Below, piece after piece: positions 7,778-44,211 of a stretch of 47,792 bases of DNA. The stretch's first letter is position 1; each line of letters opens with the position of its first letter. The translations under genes and the position numbers were made by a program. Under the pieces are notes generated by a model that was given only the letters and a program-made list of their open reading frames with translations, did not search any database and had not been told where the DNA came from. This stretch comes from Candidatus Levybacteria bacterium RIFCSPHIGHO2_01_FULL_40_16 (GTDB lineage Bacteria > Patescibacteriota > Microgenomatia > Levybacterales > UBA12049), in assembly GCA_001783805.1 (NCBI GenBank), contig MFNS01000007.1, forward strand, positions 155,975 to 203,766, written 5' to 3'.

Positions 7778-8032
7778 TTTTTTGATCCTGATTTTTTTGA
7801 CATCTTAAGATCAAAAATTCTACTCCTCAAATATTCAAAGTCGAAGGCGTCGAGAATATCCAACTTCAAGAAATCAAATCCCTACCGTCTAGTTTAAGTC
7901 AGGTTGATTTGTCAAGATTAATCAATTTTCAGAGAGTATTATGCGGACGTCATGAACATGAAAGAAGGAAAACCAATTGATTTGACAAGCGTGCCTCAAA
8001 AACGTATTCTAAATGAAGACGGAGATATTTTT

Positions 8033-11000
8033 ATGGCAGAAAACGGAGAAGGACCACAAGCACCAAAACAGCCAGAAGGAAATAATGCAAAAAACCCTCG
8101 GGAGGAAAAAATAATAACCCCTGAAGAAAAACAAAAAATTAACAACGCATGGCAGACGCATAATTCATTGAGAACATCAGAAGGAGAAAAAATTTCCGTT
8201 GATGAAATGCGAACTCAGGAAATGCTTAAAGAAAAAGGATTTATGCCTCCCCTTACTCAAGAGGCTAAAGACCTTCTTAAAAACGTTGACGAGGGATTGG
8301 GGCCTTCGCAGTTTACCGCTAGACTTGAGCGGATTCTAAGAGAAAATGGAATAAGTCAAGAAGACATTAATAGCAAAAATACTCAAGAACTTTTTAATAT
8401 TTTAAGATCAAGCAGGGTTCCGGAGCAAAATACCGAATCCCAGGGAAAACAAAATCCTGTAAATGAAGGAGAAAATAACCATAAAAAAGAAGCTCCAGAA
8501 GCTAAGGCGCCAGGTGATAAGCCTAAAGAACAAAAAAATATAAATGCCGAAGATGATCTTTTTTCCCAAACCCCAAATATTCCCGATGACGAAGCGGAAT
8601 TAGAAAGAATTGCAAAAAAAGATCTAGAGGCATCAGGGATAACAAAAAGCGCCGCAGAGGGGTCAAAAATTGCACAGGATGTCTTGGAATTAAGAAAGCA
8701 ACAATTGAGGAATACGAGAGATTTTATAAAAGGCGTTGAAATGGAAACACGTGCATTTGGAAAAGGTCCCGCGCAATCTCTCTCGGAAATAATTCAGGGA
8801 GTAAAAACCGGAAGGATTAACGCAATTGATGCGGAACCTTATATACAAAGATATGCCGAAATTGCTGCGAAACAGAAACAAGATATGGGAGAACAGGCAG
8901 GCAGAGAATGGAGAGAAATTATTGGAAATCTTGAATCAAAAACAGGATATGAAAAAACAAAAGCGCTAAAAGACGTAATAAGAAAATTAAATCCCGACAT
9001 GACGATTCCGGACGAATTTTTCGAATTGGTAGCAAAAGACGATGAGGCATCCGAGCAACTTGTTTCAAAGATTGTCTATAAACCTTTTGCGACTCCTGAA
9101 GCGGAATACAGTTTATCCTTCTATGCAAGTATCAACTTCGAAAGTTTTTTAACTGTTGTCGGAAATGTTGAGGAAAATGTTGGAAGTAGAAAATCAAGCG
9201 AAAGACGCCAAAACTATAAAGAGCAGCATGAGATGGCATTACGCTTACACGAAGCCAATAAAGCCATTGTTACTCAGTCGGCAAATATAGACGGACTAAT
9301 GAATATTGCAAGGACGATTACTCCCGAACGACTGCAAACAGGAATTGAGCTGGATGGGGTTGAACAGGCAAGGCAAATATGTGAGCTGGCTTTTGGAAGA
9401 TTATACGCCAATTACGATAGGCTGCAGGCCCAACGATACCAAACGGAAATAGCTGATTGGGCAAAGGAAACCTTTGTAAGCGAGATGCCTAAAGCGGGCA
9501 TAAAAAGTAGGTTTGAAGGACCGGACAAAAAACTGCGCAATCTGGAAGACTGGGAGCTTGAAAGAGCCTTTGGTTTGGGAAGAAATTACCAGGCAACTCT
9601 TTTAAGAGTTCCGGAGTTGGTAAGCTGGGGAAATATTCCGAAACCAAGCGAAGAGTGGCTCAGATCACCGACCTCGGAAACTCTGGCGAGAATAATCGGA
9701 GGATTTAAGATGCTACAGGGAAGATTTAGATCCGGAGTGACGAAGGGAGGACCCACCTATGTACATCTGATTAATCATGATGCAGTAAAAAATTATAAAG
9801 GACTTAGCAGAATTGGAGTACTTGATGTTAAGAAAGAGTTAATTCCTCTTTCTCTATTTAGTGCGGGAGGTTTTGAAAAGGGATGGAGACCTGTCGGATC
9901 ATATTTAAATACCCCGTTTATGAAAATTGATATATCAAGAATTCCTGAGGCGCTCCGGCAAATGAGAAGTGGGGGAGGAGAGCCGGAAAGAATATTTAAA
10001 AAATATTTGGAGGAACAAAAACATAATGACCAATCGTTAATAACTAATCCCGATAAATCTTCGACGGAAGTAAATTTAGGCGAATTCTTAGTTTATAATA
10101 CTGGACTTCTTCAAGAAGAGTTGGGACAAGATATTGAAATCAAAGGAATTAAAATCCCGAAAGAAATAACACAAACCGATTACGGCAAATCAAAACTTCT
10201 TATGGAGGACATGTTTCTTCCTTTGATGGGTTTTACTTTAAAACCGAAAAAAGTCCAAGAATTTAACGCGGAAAGAAGCAGAATAGAAAAATATGAGGCT
10301 AAAGGCCTGTCCGTAAAAGAAGGTGAAAAAGCAAGGAAAGATTTATTTAGTGGGCATTTCGAAAAAAACGAAAAAGGCGAAGACGTATACGAATATGACT
10401 ATTTTAAATATAATCAGAAAGAAGATCAAGTAAACTTTTCTTTAGGTCTTCTTCTCTCAACAGGCGGAGTCAGCAGTAATATTAGAATCCTCATTTGGCA
10501 AAAAGTTGCTGATATAATGCCTTTAAGAATCGCACAGTTTCTGTCAGAAGAGGGCGTAAAAAATTTGCCGGGTTACGAGAAAGTCAAGGGAGAAAAACTG
10601 AGTGATGGAGGAACGAGACTTTTTAAAAAGGATTTTGAAAACAAACTAATCAGGTTGCATATGATTAGGATGCAAGAACAGAAGAAAGTCTTTGAAGTGA
10701 CGAATCAGGGTAGAAGACATGAGGCTCTAAGGCTCTCTGATTATTTTGAAGCTGCTGGTTTGACGCAGGACGAACGGCAATTTGTAAAAAAGTTGCAAAA
10801 ATTAGGTAGGGAAAAAGCTTCGGAATTGGCACAAGTTGATTTTCCTCATGTAGCGTTTCTTGATGATGTTCCTTTCCAAAAATCAGAATACGGCAATCTC
10901 GGTCCGGAAGTTTATGCAAGAAGAATGAATGATGAAAGGGGTTATTCAGAAGCAAGAGATGCTGCAGGAGGGGTTGTTGAGCATATTGGGGGATCATGGG

Positions 11001-11452
11001 GAGAAATAAAAAAGCATTTGAAGGAAATGGAAGGAGCATTGAGTGGTCCGGAAGGATCATTCACTGCCCAGAATGTGGCATACAAACTTATAAAACCATA
11101 TTTTATGATGGCAGAACAATTTGGTAGGGCCAAGATCCCGGGATACAAGCCTATTGCGGAATTTTTAAATATTCCTACCTCCCATCTTCAAAGATTATTT
11201 TCAACAAATGCACCTTCATGGAACGTAAGAGAATTGAGCGTAAATATACGCGATTTGGCTGCTGATGATGGAATCCTCCGAAATGAAAAGATGCCCGGAG
11301 AGAAAAAAAGCCAAGTGAGCCAACTCTTAACGGAGTTTAATGCTCAACCATTTAAAGTCGCATGGAGCGAATTCCTGAATGCTTTAATGATGTGGATGTT
11401 ATTTTCTCTTGCGGCACTTCCATCAAAAATAAAAGACTACGGGAAAAGATAA
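8033..11452 (+). CDS. Large orphan protein (~1140 aa), charged N-terminus and hydrophobic C-terminal helix
   Basis: Long open frame; TTGACA-17-TATTCT (7982-8010) and GGAGA before ATG 8033; no family recognised. Confidence 0.75.
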   Translation: MAENGEGPQAPKQPEGNNAKNPREEKIITPEEKQKINNAWQTHNSLRTSEGEKISVDEMRTQEMLKEKGFMPPLTQEAKDLLKNVDEGLGPSQFTARLERILRENGISQEDINSKNTQELFNILRSSRVPEQNTESQGKQNPVNEGENNHKKEAPEAKAPGDKPKEQKNINAEDDLFSQTPNIPDDEAELERIAKKDLEASGITKSAAEGSKIAQDVLELRKQQLRNTRDFIKGVEMETRAFGKGPAQSLSEIIQGVKTGRINAIDAEPYIQRYAEIAAKQKQDMGEQAGREWREIIGNLESKTGYEKTKALKDVIRKLNPDMTIPDEFFELVAKDDEASEQLVSKIVYKPFATPEAEYSLSFYASINFESFLTVVGNVEENVGSRKSSERRQNYKEQHEMALRLHEANKAIVTQSANIDGLMNIARTITPERLQTGIELDGVEQARQICELAFGRLYANYDRLQAQRYQTEIADWAKETFVSEMPKAGIKSRFEGPDKKLRNLEDWELERAFGLGRNYQATLLRVPELVSWGNIPKPSEEWLRSPTSETLARIIGGFKMLQGRFRSGVTKGGPTYVHLINHDAVKNYKGLSRIGVLDVKKELIPLSLFSAGGFEKGWRPVGSYLNTPFMKIDISRIPEALRQMRSGGGEPERIFKKYLEEQKHNDQSLITNPDKSSTEVNLGEFLVYNTGLLQEELGQDIEIKGIKIPKEITQTDYGKSKLLMEDMFLPLMGFTLKPKKVQEFNAERSRIEKYEAKGLSVKEGEKARKDLFSGHFEKNEKGEDVYEYDYFKYNQKEDQVNFSLGLLLSTGGVSSNIRILIWQKVADIMPLRIAQFLSEEGVKNLPGYEKVKGEKLSDGGTRLFKKDFENKLIRLHMIRMQEQKKVFEVTNQGRRHEALRLSDYFEAAGLTQDERQFVKKLQKLGREKASELAQVDFPHVAFLDDVPFQKSEYGNLGPEVYARRMNDERGYSEARDAAGGVVEHIGGSWGEIKKHLKEMEGALSGPEGSFTAQNVAYKLIKPYFMMAEQFGRAKIPGYKPIAEFLNIPTSHLQRLFSTNAPSWNVRELSVNIRDLAADDGILRNEKMPGEKKSQVSQLLTEFNAQPFKVAWSEFLNALMMWMLFSLAALPSKIKDYGKR

Positions 11453-13249: not shown

Positions 13250-13310
13250 GCTCCATATAGTTTGTCTTATTTTGTGTTTTATGTCAAGTTGAAGTAAAAT
13301 ACAAAGGCCT

Positions 13311-13384
13311 GTGCCTGTAGCTTAATGGATACCCGCCGACGCTGAAGCTTTGGCGGGCAGGGAGCATTCAGATTGCCTGGCACG
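13311..13384 (+). pseudogene. tRNA-Arg-like relic with a palindromic insertion in the D-arm
   Basis: gtgcctg-tagcttaatggata, a 30-nt hairpin insert, then gagca; anticodon and T arms missing; ends ggcac. Confidence 0.65.
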
Positions 13385-13388
13385 TTAA

Positions 13389-13461
13389 GTCCTTGTAGCT
13401 TAATGGATAGAGCATTGGGTTGCGAACCCAACGATTGGGAGTTCGAATCTCCCCGAGGACA
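13389..13461 (+). tRNA. tRNA-Arg (anticodon GCG)
   Basis: Acceptor gtccttg/cgaggac, anticodon arm ttggg-ttGCGaa-cccaa, T-loop gttcgaatc. Confidence 0.95.
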
Positions 13462-13496
13462 CATAAAGACTTTTACGTGCCGGAGCTGCGGGCATT

Positions 13497-13581
13497 GGAG
13501 GATTCGCATAGTGGTCAATTGCACGAGTTTCGAAAACTCGAGGGAGCAATCCCTACACAGGTTCGAATCCTGTATCCTCCG
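13497..13581 (+). tRNA. tRNA-Ser (CGA)
   Basis: cgagt-ttCGAaa-actcg, long variable arm, gttcgaatc, G discriminator. Confidence 0.95.
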
Positions 13582-13586
13582 CCCTT

Positions 13587-13662
13587 GTCCTCGTAGTTCA
13601 ACTGGATAGACCTGCCCGCCATCCCGATTTAATCGGGAAGGCAAATGCAGGCGGGGCGTCAG
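13587..13662 (+). pseudogene. 5' half of a tRNA-Arg-like gene interrupted by a nested palindrome
   Basis: gtcctcgtagttcaactggataga, a 45-nt insert (13611-13655), then gcgtcag, abutting the next tRNA. Confidence 0.65.
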
Positions 13663-13736
13663 GTTCTTGTAGCTTAATTGGATAGAGCACTGGGTTCCGA
13701 ACCCAGCGATTGGGAGTTCGAATCTCCCCAAGAACA
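13663..13736 (+). tRNA. tRNA-Arg (CCG)
   Basis: gttcttg/caagaac, ctggg-ttCCGaa-cccag, gttcgaatc. Confidence 0.95.
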
Positions 13737-13756
13737 CATTTGACAATTTAACGTTT

Positions 13757-14173
13757 ATGAAAATTCAATTTTCAGCAGGGGGGATAGTGTTTAAAAGAAT
13801 CGGCGATAAAACAGAAATTCTGGTTTCGCAGCATTCCCAGCACCACGGTTGGGTTTTCCCCAAAGGATTAATTGGAGACCATGTTGAAAAAGAAAACAAA
13901 GAAGAAACGGCGCTAAGGGAAGTAAAAGAAGAAGCAGGAGTAAACGGAAAAATTACACGAGCCTTGAATCCGATTACTTATTGGTTCGTTATGGATAGTG
14001 AAAAAATCAGAAAAACTGTTTATTATTTTCTAATGGAATATGTGAATGGAGATATTTCCAAACATGATCATGAAATGGAAGCAGTTGTTTGGTTGCCGAA
14101 AGAAAAAGTTGAAGAAAGATTGACCTATGAATCTGATAAAACTGTCTGGAAAGAAGCCAAAAATCTAATTTAA
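13757..14173 (+). CDS. NUDIX hydrolase
   Basis: FSAGG, WVFPKG, and Nudix box ETALREVKEEAG. Confidence 0.9.
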   Translation: MKIQFSAGGIVFKRIGDKTEILVSQHSQHHGWVFPKGLIGDHVEKENKEETALREVKEEAGVNGKITRALNPITYWFVMDSEKIRKTVYYFLMEYVNGDISKHDHEMEAVVWLPKEKVEERLTYESDKTVWKEAKNLI

Positions 14174-15848: not shown

Positions 15849-15855
15849 ATTTTTA

Positions 15856-15935
15856 GGCGGACTGCGTCTCGCCGTAGCTAAGCCGAATCCCGCCTTCGTT
15901 CTGCAAAGCAGAACTTCGGCGAGGCAAAGGCGGAG
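15856..15935. repeat. Nested CTTCG/CGTAG hairpins linking the tRNA-Ser 3' end to the GIY-YIG gene
   Basis: Inner cccgccttcg-ttctgc-aaa-gcagaa-cttcggcgagg (15889-15924); outer ctcgccgtagc...gcaaaggcggag overlaps the tRNA end. Confidence 0.75.
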
Positions 15936-16065: not shown

Positions 16066-16800
16066 GTGGGATTATTGGATTTTTTCTTTCCCAAACATTG
16101 TGTGAATTGCCGGAAAATAGGGGATTACATTTGCGCCAACTGTTTTTCTTTTATCTCCTTTGATGTTTCCATGATTTGTTTGGTCTGCAACAAGGGTTCA
16201 ATTGACGGGTTAACTCATCCGGGGTGCCGGGGAAAATATACGATTGACGGGGCGTTTGCGGGAGTTAGTTACAAGAGAACTATTAAAAAATTAATTTATA
16301 ATTTTAAATACAAGCCTTACCTCGCCGACTTGAGAAGCGTTTTAACAGACCTTTTTTGCGAATCGCTTATTCAGCAGGAACTTTTTCAAAAAGCTCTCGG
16401 ATTTTCACCGATTCTGGTGCCGATTCCGCTTTACTCAAAAAGATTGCGAAAAAGAGGTTATAATCACGCAAAGCTATTGACAGAAGGCTTATCAAAAAAA
16501 CTTAATCTTAAAATGGTTGAGGTCTTGCAAAGAACCAAAGAAACCAAGTCTCAATTCGGATTAACCCTCAAAGAAAGAAAAGAAAACATCAAGGACGCTT
16601 TTACTCTTGCTCCAAATATCCCCGCCTTCGCCAAGGCTTCCACCTTCGCAAATGCTTCGGCGGACAGGTCGGCGGGCAAGGCCAATATCCTCCTCGTCGA
16701 CGATATCTTAACCACCGGCTCAACTCTTTTGGAAGCGGCCAAAATGCTTAAGAAAAGCGGAGTGAAAAAAGTCTGGGGATTAACTCTGGCAAGAGATTAA
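16066..16800 (+). CDS. comF: ComF-family phosphoribosyltransferase-like competence protein
   Basis: Double Zn-ribbon N-terminus, RGYNHA, ERKENI, LLVDDILTTGSTL; in-frame palindrome insert before the PRT motif. Confidence 0.9.
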   Translation: MGLLDFFFPKHCVNCRKIGDYICANCFSFISFDVSMICLVCNKGSIDGLTHPGCRGKYTIDGAFAGVSYKRTIKKLIYNFKYKPYLADLRSVLTDLFCESLIQQELFQKALGFSPILVPIPLYSKRLRKRGYNHAKLLTEGLSKKLNLKMVEVLQRTKETKSQFGLTLKERKENIKDAFTLAPNIPAFAKASTFANASADRSAGKANILLVDDILTTGSTLLEAAKMLKKSGVKKVWGLTLARD

Positions 16801-18968: not shown

Positions 18969-19205
18969 TTATATTAATCTTTTATTTCTAAATGCAAAGC
19001 CTGAATTAGTTTTTAGATACTTTTCAAAATGCAAAGCTTTCAGTTTCGAAACAAAAGCTGAGTAGTGTACCAATTTAAGAGGTCTTAAATTTCTTGTTTG
19101 AGAAACTTCCCCCTTTTGATGAGTAGCTACACGTTGTTTCAAATCAGATGAGTAACCAATATATAAAGTTTTATCCCTTAATTGAAGAATATAAACATAA
19201 TACAT
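18969..19205 (-). CDS. Stand-alone GIY-YIG nuclease (78 aa)
   Basis: YVY-x9-YIG, SDLKQRVATHQ, FEKYLKTNSG; start taken at MYYVY, which has TGC-TACAAT 6 nt upstream. Confidence 0.92.
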   Translation of the reverse strand: MYYVYILQLRDKTLYIGYSSDLKQRVATHQKGEVSQTRNLRPLKLVHYSAFVSKLKALHFEKYLKTNSGFAFRNKRLI

Positions 19206-19230: not shown

Positions 19231-19369
19231 TGTCCCACTTCGTCCCTCTTCGCTTGCGCTACAATGGGATTACGTTTGGGACACTCTTCTTTTCAGCCAT
19301 AATGTCTTACTAACGAAGTGTGGCTGTGCCACTTCGTAGCTCATAAGTTTACTTATGAGCGAAGAGTGG
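19231..19369. repeat. Doublet of CTTCG/CGTAG hairpins linking the tmRNA 3' end to the GIY-YIG gene
   Basis: tgtcccacttcg-tccc[tcttcgcttgcgctac]..ggga-ttacgtttgggaca (19231-19283) and ccacttcgta-gctcataagt-tt-acttatgagc-gaagagtgg (19329-19369). Confidence 0.8.
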
Positions 19370-19735
19370 AGATGTCGAGCTGTGAGCTCGAGTCCAAGAA
19401 ATTACTATAAAAACTTCTACAAGCTTAGTTGATTATTTTGTGTCGCGCTATTTTTTTCTAATCAACAAGAATTAATAGCGTCAAGGTTGATAAATACAAT
19501 AAGGATAGAAACCAACTGCCCTCACCATCTCTCAACTGTAGTTATGCTTATAAAGTCCCGTTGAGAAAAGACTTCATAAACAGTTCAGCTTGTCTTAAGC
19601 GTATAAATACGCTTGTCGAAAAGCGAACGCTGGCATTTTATTGCTAGCATTTAATTTTTGATCAGTTTTACGACGTTTGATCGTTGTCGGCTTGCTGTTT
19701 TTTAAAGTGCAATCTTGTCGATGCAATGCATCCCC
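19367..19735 (-). ncRNA. ssrA: tmRNA
   Basis: 5' GGGGATG pairs with 3' CATCTCC-A, with a G3.U70 pair; tag ORF ASNKMPAFAFRQAYLYA* (19648-19595); adjacent to smpB. Confidence 0.92.
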
Positions 19736-40974: not shown

Positions 40975-43431
40975 ATGAAATTGGATGGAGTAAGGGAAAA
41001 AGTATTTAAAGACAGGTATGCCCTTAAAGGTAAAAATGGTGAGCTTTTGGAACACAAACCGGAAGAGATGTGGAAAAGAGTTGCAAGAGGCATCGCACGG
41101 AACGAAAAGCCAAGCAAAAGAAAATATTGGGCCAAAAAATTCTATGACGTTATGACCGACTTCAAATTTGTCCCCGGAGGAAGAATTTTGTCGGGTGCCG
41201 GAACAAAATATCAGGTTACCTACTTTAACTGCTTTGTTATCCCGTCTCCAAAAGACTCTCGCGGCGGAATCGTAGATTCCCTAAAGCAATTAATTGAAAT
41301 CCAGTCCCGCTCCGGCGGAGTAGGGCTTAATCTTTCATCTCTGCGCCCGAGAGGTGCCAGGGTGAAAAAAGTTAACGGAACATCTTCAGGTCCGGTTACC
41401 TGGGCCGGACTTTTCTCTTATGCCACTCATGACGTAGTCCAGCAAGGCGGAACCCGCAGGGGGGCAACCATGCTCATGCTTTGGGATTGGCATCCGGATA
41501 TCGAAGAATTTATCACAGTTAAGCAGGACCTCTCAAAAATTAACGGAGCAAATCTATCTGTTTGCGTTTCGGATGCTTTTATGGAAGCAGTCAAGAAAGA
41601 CAAAAAGTGGGATTTGGTTTATCCGGATTTGGATGATTCCCGCTATGATGCAAAATGGGATGGAGATCTGGCGCAGTGGCGCAAAATAAAAGGGAAAGTA
41701 AAAGTTTATAAAACCGTAAAAGCAAAATATCTTTGGGATTTAATTTGTACTGCGGCCTGGCGTTCTGCCGAACCGGGGCTGCACTTCCTGGAGAGGTCCA
41801 ACAAAAGATCCAATACTCATTATTTCGAAACATTAATTGCGACAAATCCTTGCGGGGAGCAGCCATTAGGCGCTTGGGCGGTTTGTAATTTAGGAGCAAT
41901 GAATTTGGCTGCTTATGTAAAAAACGGCAAATTCGATTATACGAATTTTGGCCTCGATGTGCGGGTCGCGATGCGGTTATTGGACAATGTTATTGATCAG
42001 ACATATTATTTCTTTAAAGAGAACGAAAAGTGTGCAAAAGACATCCGCCGGACGGGACTCGGGATAATGGGAATCGGAGATGCACTGATTAAAATGAAAA
42101 TCCGTTACGGGTCCAAAGAATCAATGCCAATAATCAAAAAAATCTTTGAGACACTACGCAATAATGCCTATGATGAATCCTGTAATCTGGCAAAAGAAAA
42201 AGGAGCATTTCCAAAATTCAACAGGAAGAAATATCTTAAAGGTTATCATATCAAAAATCTTCCGGCAGATCTTCGAAAGAAAATCGCCAAGCAGGGAATT
42301 AGAAATGCGGTTTTGTTAACTATTGCTCCAACCGGAACAACCAGTTTAATTTCGGGTGTCAGCTCCGGAATTGAACCGGTTTATGAATTTGTTTTTAAAA
42401 GAAAAGACAGGACCGGCGAGCACATGATGTATCATCCGCTGTATGAGGAGTGGAAAAAACAAAATCCCCCTTCGTCCATTTCAGGGCAAGCTCCGGAAAA
42501 ACCCGCCTATTTTGTCTCGGCAAATGACTTAAGTCCTTTAGAACATGCCCAAGTGCAGGCAGCTGCCCAGGAATTTATTGATTCGTCGATTTCCAAAACA
42601 GTGAACGCTCCAAGTTTCCATACGGTTGAAGATGTTAAAGCTCTTTACATGTCAGCCTATGATTTGGGTCTGAAAGGGCTCGCCTATATGAGAGACGGAT
42701 CCCGAGAGGGGGTATTGGAAAGAATTGTCCCGACGGTTACCTCAGCTCAAACCAAGGCTTCTTCTTCGCCAAAACCGGTTGTTCCCCGTCCAATGTCCCT
42801 TTCGGGAGTGACTTATAAAATTGAAACGCCTGTCGGACACACCTATATAACCCTTAATCATAACGATCAGGGAGAGCCTTTTGAAGTGTTTATGACAATT
42901 GGTAAAGTGGGCTCTGATGTTGCAGCTATGGCTGATGCATTGGGTCGCATGATTTCCCTGAATCTGCGTTTGACTGACGGGCTTTCACCGCGGGAAAGAA
43001 TTAAGCAGGTAGTTGCCCAGCTAATCGGAATTGGGGGAGCAAGAAGTGTTGGCTTTGGTAAGGACCGGGTCAGGTCCTTACCGGACGCGATAGCCAAAGT
43101 CTTGTCAATGCATTATGGGTTTGCTCTGAACGGAAAAGTGGAGGACAAGCCTTTGACAAACGGTTTGACAAATGGCCTGCCCGACATTGCCAAGTCATGG
43201 CAGGCGGGACACGCCAACGGAAGTCTTACGAATGGGCAGATTGAGCCTGAAGTTGTCGAAAATACAGAAATTGTTAAAATGCAGCAATTGGCAATCGACG
43301 GAGGGGCGGCTGCCGCCTTATCGGACACGTCAACCAGTCTTTATGATCTTTGCCCGGAGTGCGGCGGAGGAAGTTTGGCTTATGAAGAAGGCTGTAAAAA
43401 GTGCTATGCCTGCGGATATTCGGAATGTTGA
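40975..43431 (+). CDS. nrdJ: Adenosylcobalamin-dependent class II ribonucleotide reductase with TSCPD and Zn-ribbon C-terminus
   Basis: PGGRIL, NCFV, TNPCGEQPL, CNLG, IAPTGT, SISKTVN, SLPDAIA, CPECG..EGCKKC..CGYSEC. Confidence 0.93.
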   Translation: MKLDGVREKVFKDRYALKGKNGELLEHKPEEMWKRVARGIARNEKPSKRKYWAKKFYDVMTDFKFVPGGRILSGAGTKYQVTYFNCFVIPSPKDSRGGIVDSLKQLIEIQSRSGGVGLNLSSLRPRGARVKKVNGTSSGPVTWAGLFSYATHDVVQQGGTRRGATMLMLWDWHPDIEEFITVKQDLSKINGANLSVCVSDAFMEAVKKDKKWDLVYPDLDDSRYDAKWDGDLAQWRKIKGKVKVYKTVKAKYLWDLICTAAWRSAEPGLHFLERSNKRSNTHYFETLIATNPCGEQPLGAWAVCNLGAMNLAAYVKNGKFDYTNFGLDVRVAMRLLDNVIDQTYYFFKENEKCAKDIRRTGLGIMGIGDALIKMKIRYGSKESMPIIKKIFETLRNNAYDESCNLAKEKGAFPKFNRKKYLKGYHIKNLPADLRKKIAKQGIRNAVLLTIAPTGTTSLISGVSSGIEPVYEFVFKRKDRTGEHMMYHPLYEEWKKQNPPSSISGQAPEKPAYFVSANDLSPLEHAQVQAAAQEFIDSSISKTVNAPSFHTVEDVKALYMSAYDLGLKGLAYMRDGSREGVLERIVPTVTSAQTKASSSPKPVVPRPMSLSGVTYKIETPVGHTYITLNHNDQGEPFEVFMTIGKVGSDVAAMADALGRMISLNLRLTDGLSPRERIKQVVAQLIGIGGARSVGFGKDRVRSLPDAIAKVLSMHYGFALNGKVEDKPLTNGLTNGLPDIAKSWQAGHANGSLTNGQIEPEVVENTEIVKMQQLAIDGGAAAALSDTSTSLYDLCPECGGGSLAYEEGCKKCYACGYSEC

Positions 43432-43486
43432 ATGCGAATTTATACGGATTGTTAATACGAATAAATTCGAATTTAATATTTAGATT

Positions 43487-43597
43487 TAAAGTTAGGTAAT
43501 CATGGTGTAAATCCATGACTGTGCCGCAACTGTTAAAGTCAGAAAACTAACTTTATTTAAATTCCCGAGCAGGATCTTTTCATTGTCCTTCTCGGGA
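43487..43597 (+). promoter_or_regulatory. Compact cobalamin riboswitch with downstream expression hairpin
   Basis: Closing stem taaagttag/ctaacttta, T-loop hairpin catgg-tgtaaat-ccatg, ctgtgccgcaactgt, B12-box-like aagtcaga; hairpin 43563-97 before the adenosyltransferase start. Confidence 0.8.
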
Positions 43598-43611: not shown

Positions 43612-44211
43612 ATGCCAATTTATACGCGGACAGGAGACAAAGGGAAAACAACTCTTTTTAACGGACAAAGAGTATCAAAGGGAGATTTAAGAATTGATAC
43701 TTTGGGGACAATTGACGAGCTAAATTCAGCGATCGGAGTTGTACTTGCGGAAACTCAAAACTCAAAACTCAAAACTCAAAACTACAACTCAAAATTAAAA
43801 AGTGAGCTAATTAAAATCCAAAATGATTTATTAAGCATTGGCTCGGCGCTGGCAAATCCGAAAGTTAGCAGTAAGAGGTTAACAGTTAGTAGTTTATCAA
43901 AAAGGGTTAAGGAATTCGAAGATTTTATTGACAAAATGATGAAAAACTTACCACCCCTTTCCAGCTTTATCCTTCCCGGAGGAGGAAAGACAGGCGCCAC
44001 TCTTCATTTGGCCAGAGCAATTTGCCGGCGGGCGGAAAGAAGAATTGTAGAATTAAATTCTAAAGAAAAAACCCTTCGGCTTCGCTCAGGGCAAGTTGAT
44101 AACAGCATCATTATTTACTTCAATCGGCTTTCGGATTTGCTTTTTACCCTGGCCCGTTTTGCGAATTTCAAAGAAAAGAAAAAAGAGATAGTTTGGTCTA
44201 AGAGACATTAA
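43612..44211 (+). CDS. Cob(I)alamin adenosyltransferase (PduO-type)
   Basis: IYTRTGDKGKT, GTIDELNS, FILPGG, ARAICRRAER, NRLSDLLF. Confidence 0.95.
   Translation: MPIYTRTGDKGKTTLFNGQRVSKGDLRIDTLGTIDELNSAIGVVLAETQNSKLKTQNYNSKLKSELIKIQNDLLSIGSALANPKVSSKRLTVSSLSKRVKEFEDFIDKMMKNLPPLSSFILPGGGKTGATLHLARAICRRAERRIVELNSKEKTLRLRSGQVDNSIIIYFNRLSDLLFTLARFANFKEKKKEIVWSKRH

Follow-up and report, generated by a model that had tools for sequence, protein, structure and literature searches.

Probable remnants of native tRNA-Arg genes, split by hairpin-ended DNA and replaced by substitute tRNA genes, in a Levybacteria genome

Two broken tRNA-Arg genes (relics 1 and 2) each lie just upstream of an intact tRNA-Arg gene in the 47,792-nucleotide stretch of DNA analyzed here (the window), and it is probable that they are the remains of the native tRNA-Arg(GCG) and tRNA-Arg(CCG) genes, broken up by mobile DNA with hairpin ends and superseded by substitutes in a process that operates throughout the Levybacteria lineage. 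The mobility of these elements is something that we infer from sequence comparisons. The source genome (G000; other G numbers, and L017, denote genomes of relatives) is that of a 0.9-Mb member of the Levybacteria (CPR), metagenome-assembled in seven contigs and 98.9% complete. It encodes a tmRNA gene, on which basis we take the organism to be a bacterium. Neither ARAGORN nor Infernal found, genome-wide, the second and third tRNA-Met expected in a bacterium. All five Arg tRNAs (TCG, TCT, CCT, GCG and CCG) are encoded (ARAGORN, genome-wide), including the TCT, CCT and TCG genes that the preliminary description had suggested looking for elsewhere, and the relics are therefore redundant.

In a word index, 14 DNA runs from 14 studies contain at least half of the window's sampled words, four of them possibly derived from the source sample, and RNA runs contain less than 0.12 of its words. 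Contigs in three of the four runs compared (X11, X12 and X14) cover relic 1 without a difference, and none of the contigs listed from the four runs spans the whole window. Contigs of relatives in run X10 carry relic-less alleles, with joins 13288->13395 and 13583->13668 (8 other letters between); these come from other organisms, with 85% likeness, and add little beyond the comparison within the genus. A search for related loci with the 1166-aa ORF at 7952-11449 returned no relative.

The two partial tRNA-Arg genes described earlier are present in the sequence, as 5′ parts at 13311-13383 and 13587-13662 (Table 1). A GC-rich hairpin splits each of them in the D loop or stem, at points 2 nt apart (..GGATA^ and ..GGATAGA^), tRNA sequence resumes past the hairpin (GAGCATTCAGATTGC in relic 1, GCGTCAG at 13656-13662 in relic 2), and an intact tRNA-Arg lies just downstream, all as first described; the two intact genes are Arg(GCG) and Arg(CCG), respectively. 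The further statement that a normal 3′ half is lacking holds in that most of the 3′ sequence is gone, but relic 1 keeps a remnant.

Table 1. Features of the window discussed in the text, with positions counted from its first nucleotide.
Feature	Position	Strand	Basis or remark
Relic 1, first piece of native (outer) tRNA-Arg(GCG), GTGCCTGTAGCTTAATGGATA	13311..13331	+	Acceptor 5′ strand and D arm to position 21
Insert 1, 30-nt hairpin of the CCTG+CCCGCC..GGCGGG family	13332..13361	- (element orientation)	Folding; shared 11-nt end
Relic 1, second piece, GAGCATTCAGATTGC	13362..13376	+	D-stem 3′ strand, anticodon stem 5′ strand, loop to C35
Left arm/leader of new-tRNA element, CTGGCACGTTAA	13377..13388	+	Inverted repeat I4
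Intact (inner, probably incoming) tRNA-Arg(GCG)	13389..13462	+	ARAGORN; Rfam 71.1 bits; identical string in G003
Trailer and right arm (TTACGTGCC at 13473-13481)	13463..13481	+	Repeat I4
3′ remnant of native Arg(GCG), GGAGCTG + CGGGCAT	13482..13495	+	Variable loop and T arm deleted
tRNA-Ser(CGA), intact, between the two Arg nests	13496..13584	+	ARAGORN, Rfam
Relic 2, first piece of native tRNA-Arg(CCG), GTCCTCGTAGTTCAACTGGATAGA	13587..13610	+	Positions 1-24, to TAGA in D stem
Insert 2, 45-nt hairpin (CCTGCCCGCC...GCAGGCGGG)	13611..13655	+	Family pattern match
Relic 2, second piece, GCGTCAGGTTC	13656..13666	+	Native Arg(CCG) positions 25-35
Intact (probably incoming) tRNA-Arg(CCG)	13663..13737	+	ARAGORN; Rfam 70.7 bits
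Predicted small GIY-YIG nuclease gene, 78 aa	15612..15848	-	PF01541, 52.6 bits
Further hairpin-family member(s), in tandem	16621..16680	-	Pattern matches C7:172595-172642, 172595-172654
Predicted small GIY-YIG nuclease gene	18969..19205	-	PF01541 match C7:174973-175179; 153 nt downstream of tmRNA gene
33-nt in-frame hairpin-family member in nrdJ	43176..43208	+	Hypervariable C-terminal linker

The order Arg(GCG)-Ser(CGA)-Arg(CCG)-Ser(GGA) is conserved in five relatives of the genus, and it is these that identify the relics. G002 and G004 have no relics; an uninterrupted Arg(GCG) gene of the relic-1 type starts directly after the conserved promoter, at the same distance as relic 1. Over its three aligned parts relic 1 matches the G002 gene at 19/19, 14/14 and 6/6 positions: the first 19 nt of the first piece (which also matches G004 at 20/21), the second piece against positions 22-35, where the new gene matches at only 12/14, and the CGGGCA of the 3′ remnant against positions 66-71, as it also does in G004 and G005. 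The Arg(CCG) gene of G004 is likewise of the relic-2 type, with 22/24 matches to the first piece, compared to 19/24 for the new gene, and 10/11 to the second piece at positions 25-35. In G109 a counterpart of relic 2 follows Ser(CGA), consisting of an old Arg 5′ part that ends in ...GGATAGA and is followed by CCTGCCCGCCAT. Because relatives carry uninterrupted relic-type genes at these loci, we regard the relics as the native Arg(GCG) and Arg(CCG) genes and the intact genes as newcomers, and these uninterrupted orthologs lead us to abandon the earlier suggestion that the relics are duplicated halves produced by the mobility mechanism.

Both relics thus match intact genes of relatives in sequence and in locus, as expected of tRNA-derived pseudogenes. 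ARAGORN calls neither of them, and the Rfam tRNA model (RF00005) reports neither at E<=10 on positions 13270-13760 (491 bases) or at E<=1 genome-wide. The similarity to tRNA is thus not one that a covariance model scores, an outcome that the preliminary description had named as counting against it, and it is by orthology with relatives that the tRNA origin is held.

The substitute at the first locus is framed by inverted arms, GGCACGTTAA and TTTACGTGCC, of which the left is also found in G003; 13379-13388 pairs with 13472-13481 (inverted repeat I4; 10 nt, 90% complementary). In G000 and likewise in G006, the left arm is complementary to the acceptor 5′ strand of the old gene. At the site of the 3′ remnant G003 has GGATCTGA, which corresponds by eye to positions 36-43 of the G002 gene, and when read by eye against it the GGAGCTG of G000 appears to be native positions 36-42. 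The new Arg(GCG) sits within the anticodon loop of the native gene. Insert 1 folds at -8.0 kcal/mol as DNA (z -1.9 against shuffles) and at -16.4 as RNA (z -3.1), and G003 retains its hairpin with the inner pair compensated from GCT/AGC to GCC/GGC (by eye). Another reading was rejected in both its parts: CTGGCAC (13377-13383) is not the 3′ acceptor strand of relic 1 but the left arm of the cargo element, as comparison with G002 and G003 shows, and relic 1 is not a conserved minihelix with compensatory changes, the true 3′ acceptor remnant being CGGGCAT at 13489-13495.

At the second locus insert 2 folds at -13.4 kcal/mol as DNA (z -3.5 against shuffles; z -3.5 also as RNA). The whole 45-nt insert has a second copy at C1:404388-404432 (91%), and a 39-nt relative at C4:19947 has both ends in common with it and a different center; that insert 2 is itself nested is plausible. 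Relic 2 and the new Arg(CCG) overlap by 4 nt, GTTC, at the end of the former and the start of the latter. The new Arg(CCG) is a close paralogue of the new Arg(GCG), with 92% identity over the last 61 nt (repeat D1).

The inserts belong to a family with a common plan, a 4-nt CCTG tag, a GC stem CCCGCC/GGCGGG and a variable center, and inserts 1 and 2 share an 11-nt end in inverted orientation (TGGCGGGCAGG / CCTGCCCGCCA, 100% complementary). The family pattern has 26 matches in the genome, six of them in tRNA-derived DNA, to which the copy in relic 1 is to be added; taking tRNA-derived DNA as 0.5% of the genome, P(>=6 of 26) = 4e-9, which supports the proposal that tRNA genes are preferred targets of these repeats. 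The sequence CCTGCCCG occurs 43 times in the genome, where 5.4 occurrences are expected. The repeats recur at one place on the D-loop/D-stem border, at TAGA^ in relic 2 and in the older Pro, Val(TAC) and Leu(CAG) genes, and at GG^TAGA in Asn. Many copies are in frame in proteins, and family lengths are mostly multiples of 3, as in the copies in nrdJ and the L1 gene. The nrdJ insert (pattern match C7:199150-199182), whose termini are those of the relic inserts, as first described for insert 2, is missing from the nrdJ alignment in the closest relative, L017.

As short imperfect palindromes with stable folds and many copies, the CCTG family members resemble REPs, but the unpaired tag is CCTG and the flanks have no constant GTAG/CGTC, the tag by which REPs are described in the available text of PMC3733652. 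G000 has a RAYT-like gene at C4:18486-19190 (PF01797, 44 bits; NCBIfam REP_Tyr_transpos, 35.7 bits, below the cut-off of 80), flanked by AGCTTCGCAAGGCC.GGCCTTGCGAAGCT; this is another palindrome family, whereas in a REPtron the same repeats would flank the RAYT gene. A second RAYT-like gene, on C2, has no flanking hairpins.

At least 12 of the 45 intact tRNA genes of G000 have pieces of an older copy beside them, and four are enclosed in a complete older gene whose anticodon is the same as theirs, between arms that carry the termini of the repeat. When the inserts are removed in silico, all four outer genes (Val CAC, Val TAC, Pro TGG and Leu CAG) become tRNAs recognized by ARAGORN, with the anticodon of the inner gene. 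Empty sites are also found: G002 and G004 have an uninterrupted gene of the outer type at the Val(CAC) locus, from which it follows that the G000 insertion is exactly 112 nt at 37/38, and since the G005 Val(TAC) gene is uninterrupted and of the outer type, the insertion there is 110 nt at TAGA^GC; no target duplication is seen at either site. Every partial tRNA piece in G000 with E<1 has an intact tRNA of the same strand fewer than 100 nt away, and seven of eight T arms outside tRNAs are near an intact tRNA.

Similar arrangements extend across the order. Of 151 genomes in the order, 18 contain the junction TAGACCTGCCCG, with 26 matches compared to 6 for the reversed control. At least 10 of these are nests, at Val, Ala, Leu, Arg or Ile genes, the counterpart of relic 2 in G109 being one of them, and TAGA followed by CCTGCCCG thus marks nests in at least 10 other genomes. 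The termini CCTGCCCG.../...CAGGCGGG enclose different cargo tRNAs, and the unit occupies one and the same position in the D stem across many genera, from both of the order's families. When GGTAGACCTGCCCG was sought in all species genomes, two of the 80 loci listed had a tRNA, both being Thr(CGT) nests, and there were many chance matches in high-GC genomes.

The older copies are in various states. At the Val(TAC) nest the 3′ part of the outer gene is gone from G001 and from G002, whose outer 5′ part is degenerate, and in G006 it is the outer 5′ part that is gone; overall, outer parts are lost or degenerate in G001, G002, G006, G049, G133 and G088. The concern that relatives might keep the same structures, as a functional noncoding RNA would require, is partly justified, as G003 retains relic 1 and G006 has an altered form of it, but the older copies at other loci decay differently, and this species-specific decay argues against a conserved ncRNA. 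Two observations count against our reading of the outer genes as dead relics: relic 1 persists in three species, although a genome of 0.9 Mb might well lose dead DNA sooner, and many outer genes are still perfect cloverleaves, not only in G000 but also in G029, G064 (which retains G3:U70) and G005. Between G000 and G029, three compensated pairs distinguish the acceptor stems of the outer Val(TAC) genes, and this fits independent invasions of diverged native genes or, equally, selection on a functional outer tRNA.

Could the same structures have arisen without any cargo element or homing, through tandem duplication or gene conversion and pseudogene decay, with unrelated REP/MITE-like hairpins later settling in the dead copies as among the few neutral sites of a compact genome? 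We think this unlikely, even though cargo-less hairpins in tRNA genes are confined to redundant copies, hairpins are also found in tolerant protein sequences such as the C-terminal linker of nrdJ, the RAYT-like gene with its own flanking palindromes shows REP-type mobility in G000, the mosaic tRNA genes of G005 and G006 show that copies have undergone gene conversion, and the new Arg(CCG), which has no arms, joins the old through a 4-nt overlap. In sequence type, however, inner copies are distinct from outer ones and the two are not recent duplicates, and duplication does not readily provide for exact unit boundaries, for conserved termini around different cargo at the same D-stem position across genera, or for empty sites that are exact.

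An intron-like arrangement, in which the hairpins and the arm-flanked inner tRNAs are cut from a transcript and the outer halves joined or used as a split tRNA, so that the outer genes and perhaps relic 1 are functional, is in our view quite improbable. RNase P and RNase Z would free the inner tRNA, and the arms would hold the outer halves together. Every insert is in a tRNA loop or at a loop/stem border, including the canonical intron site 37/38 of Val(CAC), all four complete outer genes are perfect after removal of the insert, those of G029, G064 (with G3:U70 kept) and G005 are well formed, outer acceptor stems covary between lineages, and G003 keeps relic 1 and a hairpin with a compensated inner pair; moreover, CPR rRNA genes are described as carrying short non-intron insertions at the top or base of stem-loops (PMC11270868). 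Nonetheless, both Arg relics lack most of the 3′ half and therefore cannot yield a tRNA, outer parts are lost or degenerate in the six genomes named above, and the TAGA^GC site is inside the D stem. Neither the splicing endonuclease (EndA; PF01974, 0 matches) nor the RtcB ligase (PF01139, 0 matches) that an archaeal-type BHB intron would call for was found in this 98.9% complete genome, in which the controls responded. Single excision of 214 GC-rich hairpins exposed no tRNA species that is found only in interrupted form, and as to group I introns, no intron family reaches its gathering score in the window and the inserts are only 30-112 nt. Although tRNA genes are classic integration sites at which integration leaves partial tRNA repeats, and although the genome was assembled from a metagenome in seven contigs, integrase scars (att-site duplications) and assembly artifacts are both very improbable, as relic and intact gene are 5 to ~110 nt apart with no ORF in this 'island', the repeat is a 5′ half or a complete gene of a different sequence type where an identical 3′ segment would be expected, 14 DNA runs contain half or more of the window's sampled words, contigs in X11, X12 and X14 cover relic 1 without a difference, and equivalent nests are present in many independent MAGs.

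A candidate for the enzyme acting on native tRNA genes is offered by small ORFs with a GIY-YIG domain (PF01541, 40-66 bits), of which G000 has 11, all open and 78-128 aa long; at this size a separate DNA-binding domain, of the kind that known homing enzymes have, is unlikely. Eight of the 11 are within 200 nt of a tRNA or the tmRNA gene (P = 1.3e-10), as are 15 of the 29 best GIY-YIG loci in relatives; for the other three G000 genes and the other 14 loci no tRNA is that near, which counts against a role for the nuclease. The 15612-15848 gene lies 81 nt downstream of tRNA-Ser(GCT) with GC-rich hairpins between, and the nearest solved relatives of its product are the UPF0213 proteins 1zg2 and 1ywl. 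It is also the nearest such gene to the two Arg nests, ~1.9 kb off, and neither nest has one inside, which likewise tells against such a role. At three loci (Asn and Ile(GAT) in G000, Val(CAC) in G003) an old tRNA 5′ part extending to the D-loop GG is followed by a hairpin, a GIY-YIG gene and an intact tRNA, and the Ile and Val copies share 74% protein identity and the upstream hairpin. As would be expected of SegB-like genes, they are present or absent at homologous loci near their presumed target: the Val(CAC) copy lies inside the broken tRNA in G003 and is missing in G002, G004, G005 and G006, and two copies lie in the orthologous Arg/Ser cluster of G027, compared with none in that of G000. 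Around the best GIY-YIG locus in 29 other genomes, by contrast, partial tRNA pieces are rare, with one clear case (G013), a further point against the nuclease.

If the relics are native genes that were split and replaced, the events can be outlined as follows. The native Arg(GCG) gene would have received a cargo-less hairpin in its D loop and an arm-flanked substitute tRNA-Arg(GCG) in its anticodon loop after C35, and the native Arg(CCG) gene a cargo-less hairpin at TAGA^GC, with a substitute overwriting it from the anticodon loop onward and joined by the 4-nt overlap. The cell would survive because the insert brings, or precedes, a working tRNA of the same identity, and the broken native gene would then decay by deletion and further hairpin insertions. 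The elements may spread by homing, with homologous recombination through the halves of the native gene following a break, and this would explain the constant match of cargo to target; from their sequences and their positions beside tRNA genes, the minimal GIY-YIG nucleases are putative agents of the break. The cargo-less hairpins could be derivatives of the same elements or be mobilized in trans.

More tentatively, Levybacteria and at least two other CPR MAGs may harbor undescribed hairpin-ended selfish cassettes of ~110 nt, which carry a substitute tRNA as cargo, home into a gene of the same identity after a GIY-YIG break and give rise to miniature derivatives; this we consider quite possible without calling it probable. 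Such a cassette would enter the D loop or anticodon loop of a resident tRNA gene to form a 'tRNA-in-tRNA' nest, and the spare copy, not self-splicing, would solve the problem of sitting inside an essential gene. In a bolder form, the force behind the turnover of tRNA alleles would be an arms race against toxins that cleave tRNA or against phage nucleases. Were this so, the essential tRNA genes of streamlined CPR genomes would be under steady invasion by tiny cassettes that carry the replacement, a strategy unlike that of self-splicing introns, inteins, or integrative elements that restore only the end of a gene. It would account for the mosaic tRNA genes of these genomes and for their tRNA pseudo-fragments, offer a testable role for the abundant orphan GIY-YIG proteins of the UPF0213 type, and tie the in-frame palindromic repeats of proteins to a tRNA-centered life cycle. 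Full-text searches of the literature returned no description of bacterial tRNA nests, and we note for annotation that ARAGORN and Infernal miss the outer genes and the relics, and that nested genes could pass for tRNA introns.

Among known systems, integrative elements at tRNA genes carry a copy of the segment that they displace, and they resemble the present case in that a tRNA gene is disrupted, its function is restored by the incoming sequence and a native relic is left behind; the element here, however, is ~110 nt, has no integrase, brings a complete gene and not a 3′ segment, and enters the D or anticodon loop. Palindromic repeats that protein genes tolerate in frame are also known from Rickettsia, as the Rickettsia palindromic elements (RPE) to which PMC3733652 refers. 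RPEs are longer than the repeats here, and we know of none with tRNA cargo or targeting of tRNA loops. REPs and REPtrons (PMC3733652) share with the present family short (30-48 nt) imperfect GC-rich palindromes with a 4-nt end tag in tens of copies, some of them intragenic, and a palindrome-flanked RAYT-like gene is present in G000 as well. They differ in the tag (GTAG/CGTC in that description, CCTG here) and in that a different palindrome family flanks the RAYT-like gene here, many copies lie within tRNA-derived DNA and, in frame, within proteins, and some hold a whole tRNA gene in the hairpin loop, an arrangement not described in the available text of PMC3733652.

The tRNA introns of archaea, for which canonical and non-canonical sites, transposing introns and split tRNAs have been reported, are also short structured inserts in the D, anticodon and T loops, with several per gene that are related in sequence and apparently mobile (PMC4033280, PMC3293823, PMC10714607). 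Here, by contrast, the host is a bacterium in whose genome EndA and RtcB were not found, the interrupted genes decay with an intact copy alongside, and one 'intron' holds a whole tRNA. Insertions in CPR rRNA genes come from the same radiation and are likewise short, uncharacterized inserts at stem-loop tips, and some of the non-intron ones encode GIY-YIG proteins (PMC11270868); they concern rRNA, carry no replacement copy as described there, and the main text of that paper does not use the word tRNA. The nearest parallel to the proposed nuclease is SegB of phage T4, a GIY-YIG homing endonuclease encoded in a tRNA cluster that recognizes a T-loop motif of tRNA genes (PMC2330249). The SegB site is 27 bp (PMC2330249), and the proteins here, of 78-128 aa and the UPF0213 type, are mostly catalytic domain with a putative activity; SegB is found in a phage and these genes in a cellular CPR genome, and the available text of PMC2330249 mentions neither nested, broken recipient genes nor hairpin arms. 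The likeness in the reading proposed here is nonetheless in the plan as a whole, a GIY-YIG gene among tRNA genes with a conserved tRNA-gene motif as its target, and a spread together with neighboring tRNAs such as that by which SegB propagates its own gene and the adjacent tRNA genes at the expense of the recipient's tRNA markers (PMC2330249).

Each of the two intact tRNA-Arg genes in the window is preceded by a broken tRNA-Arg piece, as the preliminary description reported: relic 1 (GTGCCTGTAGCTTAATGGATA, a 30-nt hairpin and GAGCATTCAGATTGC) lies upstream of Arg(GCG), and relic 2 (GTCCTCGTAGTTCAACTGGATAGA, a 45-nt hairpin and GCGTCAG) upstream of Arg(CCG), with the two breaks, described there as within 2 nt of the same position, 2 nt apart. 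The hairpins have a common 11-nt end in inverted orientation and fold as DNA at -8.0 kcal/mol (z -1.9; RNA z -3.1) and -13.4 kcal/mol (z -3.5; RNA z -3.5), respectively. The Rfam tRNA model matches neither relic at E<=10 locally or E<=1 genome-wide, but the tRNA likeness is upheld by matching genes in relatives.

The gene order Arg(GCG)-Ser(CGA)-Arg(CCG)-Ser(GGA) is kept in five genus relatives. Conservation of the broken structures, which the preliminary description held would count against its reading, is partial: relic 1 is present in G003 (83% identical overall, its inner hairpin bearing a compensated change) and an analogous relic in G006 has another small hairpin in the same D-loop place, but G002 and G004 are without relics and their Arg(GCG) starts just past a conserved promoter, where relic 1 starts in the genome under study. 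Relic 1 agrees with G002 Arg(GCG) at 19/19, 14/14 and 6/6 aligned positions, versus only 19/21 and 12/14 with the new gene; relic 2 agrees with G004 Arg(CCG) at 22/24 and 10/11, versus 19/24 and 5/11. Because uninterrupted genes of the relic type occupy the same locus in relatives, the relics are the native Arg genes and the intact genes newcomers; the relics are not duplicated tRNA halves left over from mobility, as had been proposed. Over 61 nt the newcomers are 92% identical to each other. An ARAGORN search for other Arg genes finds all five Arg isoacceptors encoded here or elsewhere in the genome, so the Arg relics are redundant. The 45 tRNAs (ARAGORN, Infernal) include a single tRNA-Met(CAT) as well as a tRNA-Ile(TAT); either the assembly lacks an initiator or elongator tRNA-Met, or that tRNA is too unusual for detection.

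Positions of the features discussed (window coordinates unless a contig is named; C2 and C4 lie outside the window)
Feature	Position	Strand	Detection or domain
Relic 1 hairpin	13332-13361		
Left cargo arm	13377-13383		
tRNA-Arg(GCG), intact	13389-13462		ARAGORN, Rfam
tRNA-Ser(CGA), intact	13496-13584		ARAGORN, Rfam
Relic 2 hairpin	13611-13655		
tRNA-Arg(CCG), intact	13663-13737		ARAGORN, Rfam
Ser(GCT)/GIY-YIG spacer	15849-15928	-	
Small GIY-YIG gene	18969-19205	-	
tmRNA gene	19364-19735	-	
AdoCbl-II riboswitch	43478-43557	+	57.5 bits
ORF beyond riboswitch	43612-44211		
RAYT-like transposase gene	C4:18486-19190		PF01797, HUH motif
L1-like ORF	C4:19255-20289		ORF translation
Second Y1_Tnp-like ORF	C2:41789-42922		

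Read against the genes of the relatives, relic 1 is a nest, in which a new tRNA gene lies inside an older one of the same anticodon. Native Arg(GCG) positions 1-35, with the hairpin within the D loop, are followed by a left arm (CTGGCACGTTAA), the new tRNA-Arg(GCG), a trailer and a right arm (TTACGTGCC), both arms coming from a repeat search, and then by GGAGCTG and CGGGCAT, which are what is left of native positions 36-42 and 66-72; G003 keeps GGATCTGA there. Both relics are truncated as first described, but relic 1 is not wholly lacking in 3' sequence. Relic 2 extends into the native anticodon loop (GCGTCAGGTTC), its last four bases being the start of the new Arg(CCG) gene. The left cargo arm (CTGGCAC; TTGGCGC in G006, locus L015) is complementary to bases 1-5 of the 5' strand of the old acceptor stem (GTGCC; GCGCC), and the arms may be derived from acceptor stems.

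The window corresponds to C7:155975-203766 of an 897,674-bp assembly (7 contigs, contig G+C 37-44%). Across this assembly, partial tRNAs are found by BLAST, a T-arm scan and an nhmmer tRNA profile almost only beside intact tRNAs on the same strand, and remnants of older copies, counted by eye and from BLAST and profile searches, accompany at least 12 of the 45 intact tRNAs. Val(CAC), Val(TAC), Pro(TGG) and Leu(CAG) each lie within a full-length older gene that has their anticodon, and once the inserts are deleted in silico ARAGORN recognises all four outer genes as tRNAs and gives them the anticodon of the inner gene. Insertions fall in the D stem (TAGA^; Val(TAC), Leu, the Pro hairpin and relic 2), the D loop (GG^TAGA; Asn), the anticodon loop (Val(CAC) 37/38, Pro 36/37, Arg(GCG) 35/36, and Asp and Ala within the anticodon) and the T loop (Leu).

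Filled and empty sites can be compared directly. The outer-type Val(CAC) gene is uninterrupted at the orthologous locus in G002 and G004, which defines an insertion of exactly 112 nt in the genome under study; no target duplication was found in this comparison. G005 has uninterrupted outer-type Val(TAC) and Leu(CAG) genes at the orthologous place, the former being an empty site for a 110-nt insertion. The Val(TAC) nest is common to G000 (the genome under study), G001, G002 and G006, with differing decay: loss of the outer 3' part, loss of the outer 5' part, or degeneration. Of 151 genomes in the order, 18 contain the junction TAGACCTGCCCG (26 matches, versus 6 for a reversed control), and at least 10 of its contexts are nests (Val(TAC), Val(GAC), Ala(CGC), Ala(GGC), Leu(TAG), Ile(GAT), Arg(CCG)), spanning several genera and both families. 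In G109 an old Arg 5' part, CCTGCCCGCCAT and an intact Arg(CCG) follow Ser(CGA), forming a counterpart of relic 2, and at least two further nests, both Thr(CGT), are in MAGs with records labelled Saccharibacteria. Acceptor stems of outer genes are lineage-specific; arms and inner genes are similar between lineages. Val(CAC) of G005 and G006 is a mosaic with outer-type acceptor and D arm and inner-type anticodon and T arms, and their Arg(GCG) is mixed too (L014, L015, L109, L111), which suggests that gene conversion has mixed the outer with the inner copies.

The best-supported explanation is that hairpin-ended elements, with a substitute tRNA as cargo, invade native genes of matching identity, whose halves would then decay; the Arg relics would be two advanced cases. 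Plain tRNA duplication followed by an unrelated REP insertion is improbable, as it leaves exact, conserved, cargo-bearing units unexplained. We give still less credence to intron-like inserts in functional outer genes: many outer genes are indeed still perfect, but the two Arg relics are truncated, relatives have lost outer genes, EndA and RtcB were not found in this genome, and neither was any tRNA species known only in interrupted form. An assembly artefact is unlikely, since at least half of the stretch's sampled words recur in 14 DNA runs from 14 studies, contigs in three of four compared runs cover relic 1 without difference, and equivalent nests occur in many independent MAGs.

The hairpins belong to a family with a 4-nt CCTG tag and a CCCGCC/GGCGGG stem. 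The pattern CCTGCCCGC(N12-45)GCAGGCGGG, with at most one mismatch per arm, has 26 matches in the genome, two with one common end and most with lengths that are multiples of three; CCTGCCCG occurs 43 times versus 5.4 expected. The family's termini are carried by the arms bounding the Val, Pro and Leu inner tRNAs, for example CCTGCCCGACTTTGTGAAT [tRNA] ACAAAGTCCAGTCAGGCGGG. The proposal that tRNA genes are preferred targets holds up: six of the 26 matches (old Pro D stem, Gly(TCC) edge, old Leu T loop, two at Asn, and relic 2) lie in tRNA-derived DNA (P(>=6 of 26) = 4e-9, taking such DNA as 0.5% of the genome), and relic 1's hairpin is a seventh copy beyond the pattern matches. Another member is in frame in a hypervariable linker of nrdJ, and is missing from the closest relative. 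The nrdJ relatives are Candidatus Levybacteria/Levyibacteriota MAGs of the CPR/Patescibacteria, the best of them 82% identical in protein. A related MAG's nrdJ (L049) has a long insertion starting CLTGDTLV, with further blocks, that looks like an intein. An AdoCbl-II riboswitch lies just downstream of nrdJ and precedes the ORF at 43612-44211; it is not upstream of this B12-dependent reductase itself. The ribosomal protein L1 gene on contig C4, an L1-like ORF, has two in-frame family hairpins and a long N-terminal extension. On the same contig, a 234-aa RAYT-like tyrosine transposase (best NCBIfam model REP-associated tyrosine transposase, score below cut-off) has on either side the perfect palindrome AGCTTCGCAAGGCC.GGCCTTGCGAAGCT, of a different family with ~9 genome copies; the arrangement resembles a REPtron, here in a CPR genome. 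No hairpins were found flanking a second, 377-aa Y1_Tnp-like ORF.

Apart from a 431-aa open frame taken to be UvrC, 11 small open ORFs of the genome (78-128 aa) are of the GIY-YIG type, and 8 of the 11 have a tRNA or tmRNA within 200 nt (P = 1.3e-10). Their nearest solved relatives are UPF0213 proteins. Of the window's two, one adjoins Ser(GCT) and the other the tmRNA gene, so these genes adjoin tRNA-like genes generally; a 153-nt spacer with two hairpins separates the latter from the tmRNA gene upstream. The Ser(GCT)/GIY-YIG spacer (tttgCCTCGCCGAAGTTCTGCTTTGCAGAACGAAGGCGGG...) recurs nearly unchanged in G006 (L015) directly past Ser(CGA), in the Ser(CGA)-Arg(CCG) spacer, and its hairpin seems tied to tRNA-Ser 3' ends. 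All 41 genomes searched have 2-13 GIY-YIG matches, 15 of 29 best loci (one per genome) have a tRNA within 200 nt, and the orthologous Arg/Ser cluster of G027 contains two such genes. At three loci (Asn and Ile(GAT) here, Val(CAC) in G003) an old tRNA 5' part up to the D-loop GG is followed by a hairpin, a GIY-YIG ORF and an intact tRNA. At Asn the hairpin and 12 nt of the D arm are repeated on both sides; the Ile(GAT) and Val(CAC) proteins are 74% identical and have a common upstream hairpin in spite of the different tRNA genes.

The invading elements would spread by homing through the halves of the native gene, which would account for the match between cargo and target, the constant insertion site of each tRNA type and the lineage-specific outer sequences. 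Full-text literature searches returned no paper on nested tRNA genes in bacteria or on GIY-YIG genes linked to tRNAs in CPR. Sources compared include one on REP elements (PMC3733652) and, for tRNA introns, a meeting report (PMC10714607); a study of CPR rRNA gene insertions places GIY-YIG in non-intron inserts and leaves tRNA unmentioned in its main text (PMC11270868). For the DNA break itself the GIY-YIG nucleases are the obvious candidates by analogy, SegB of phage T4 being the GIY-YIG counterpart as described in PMC2330249.
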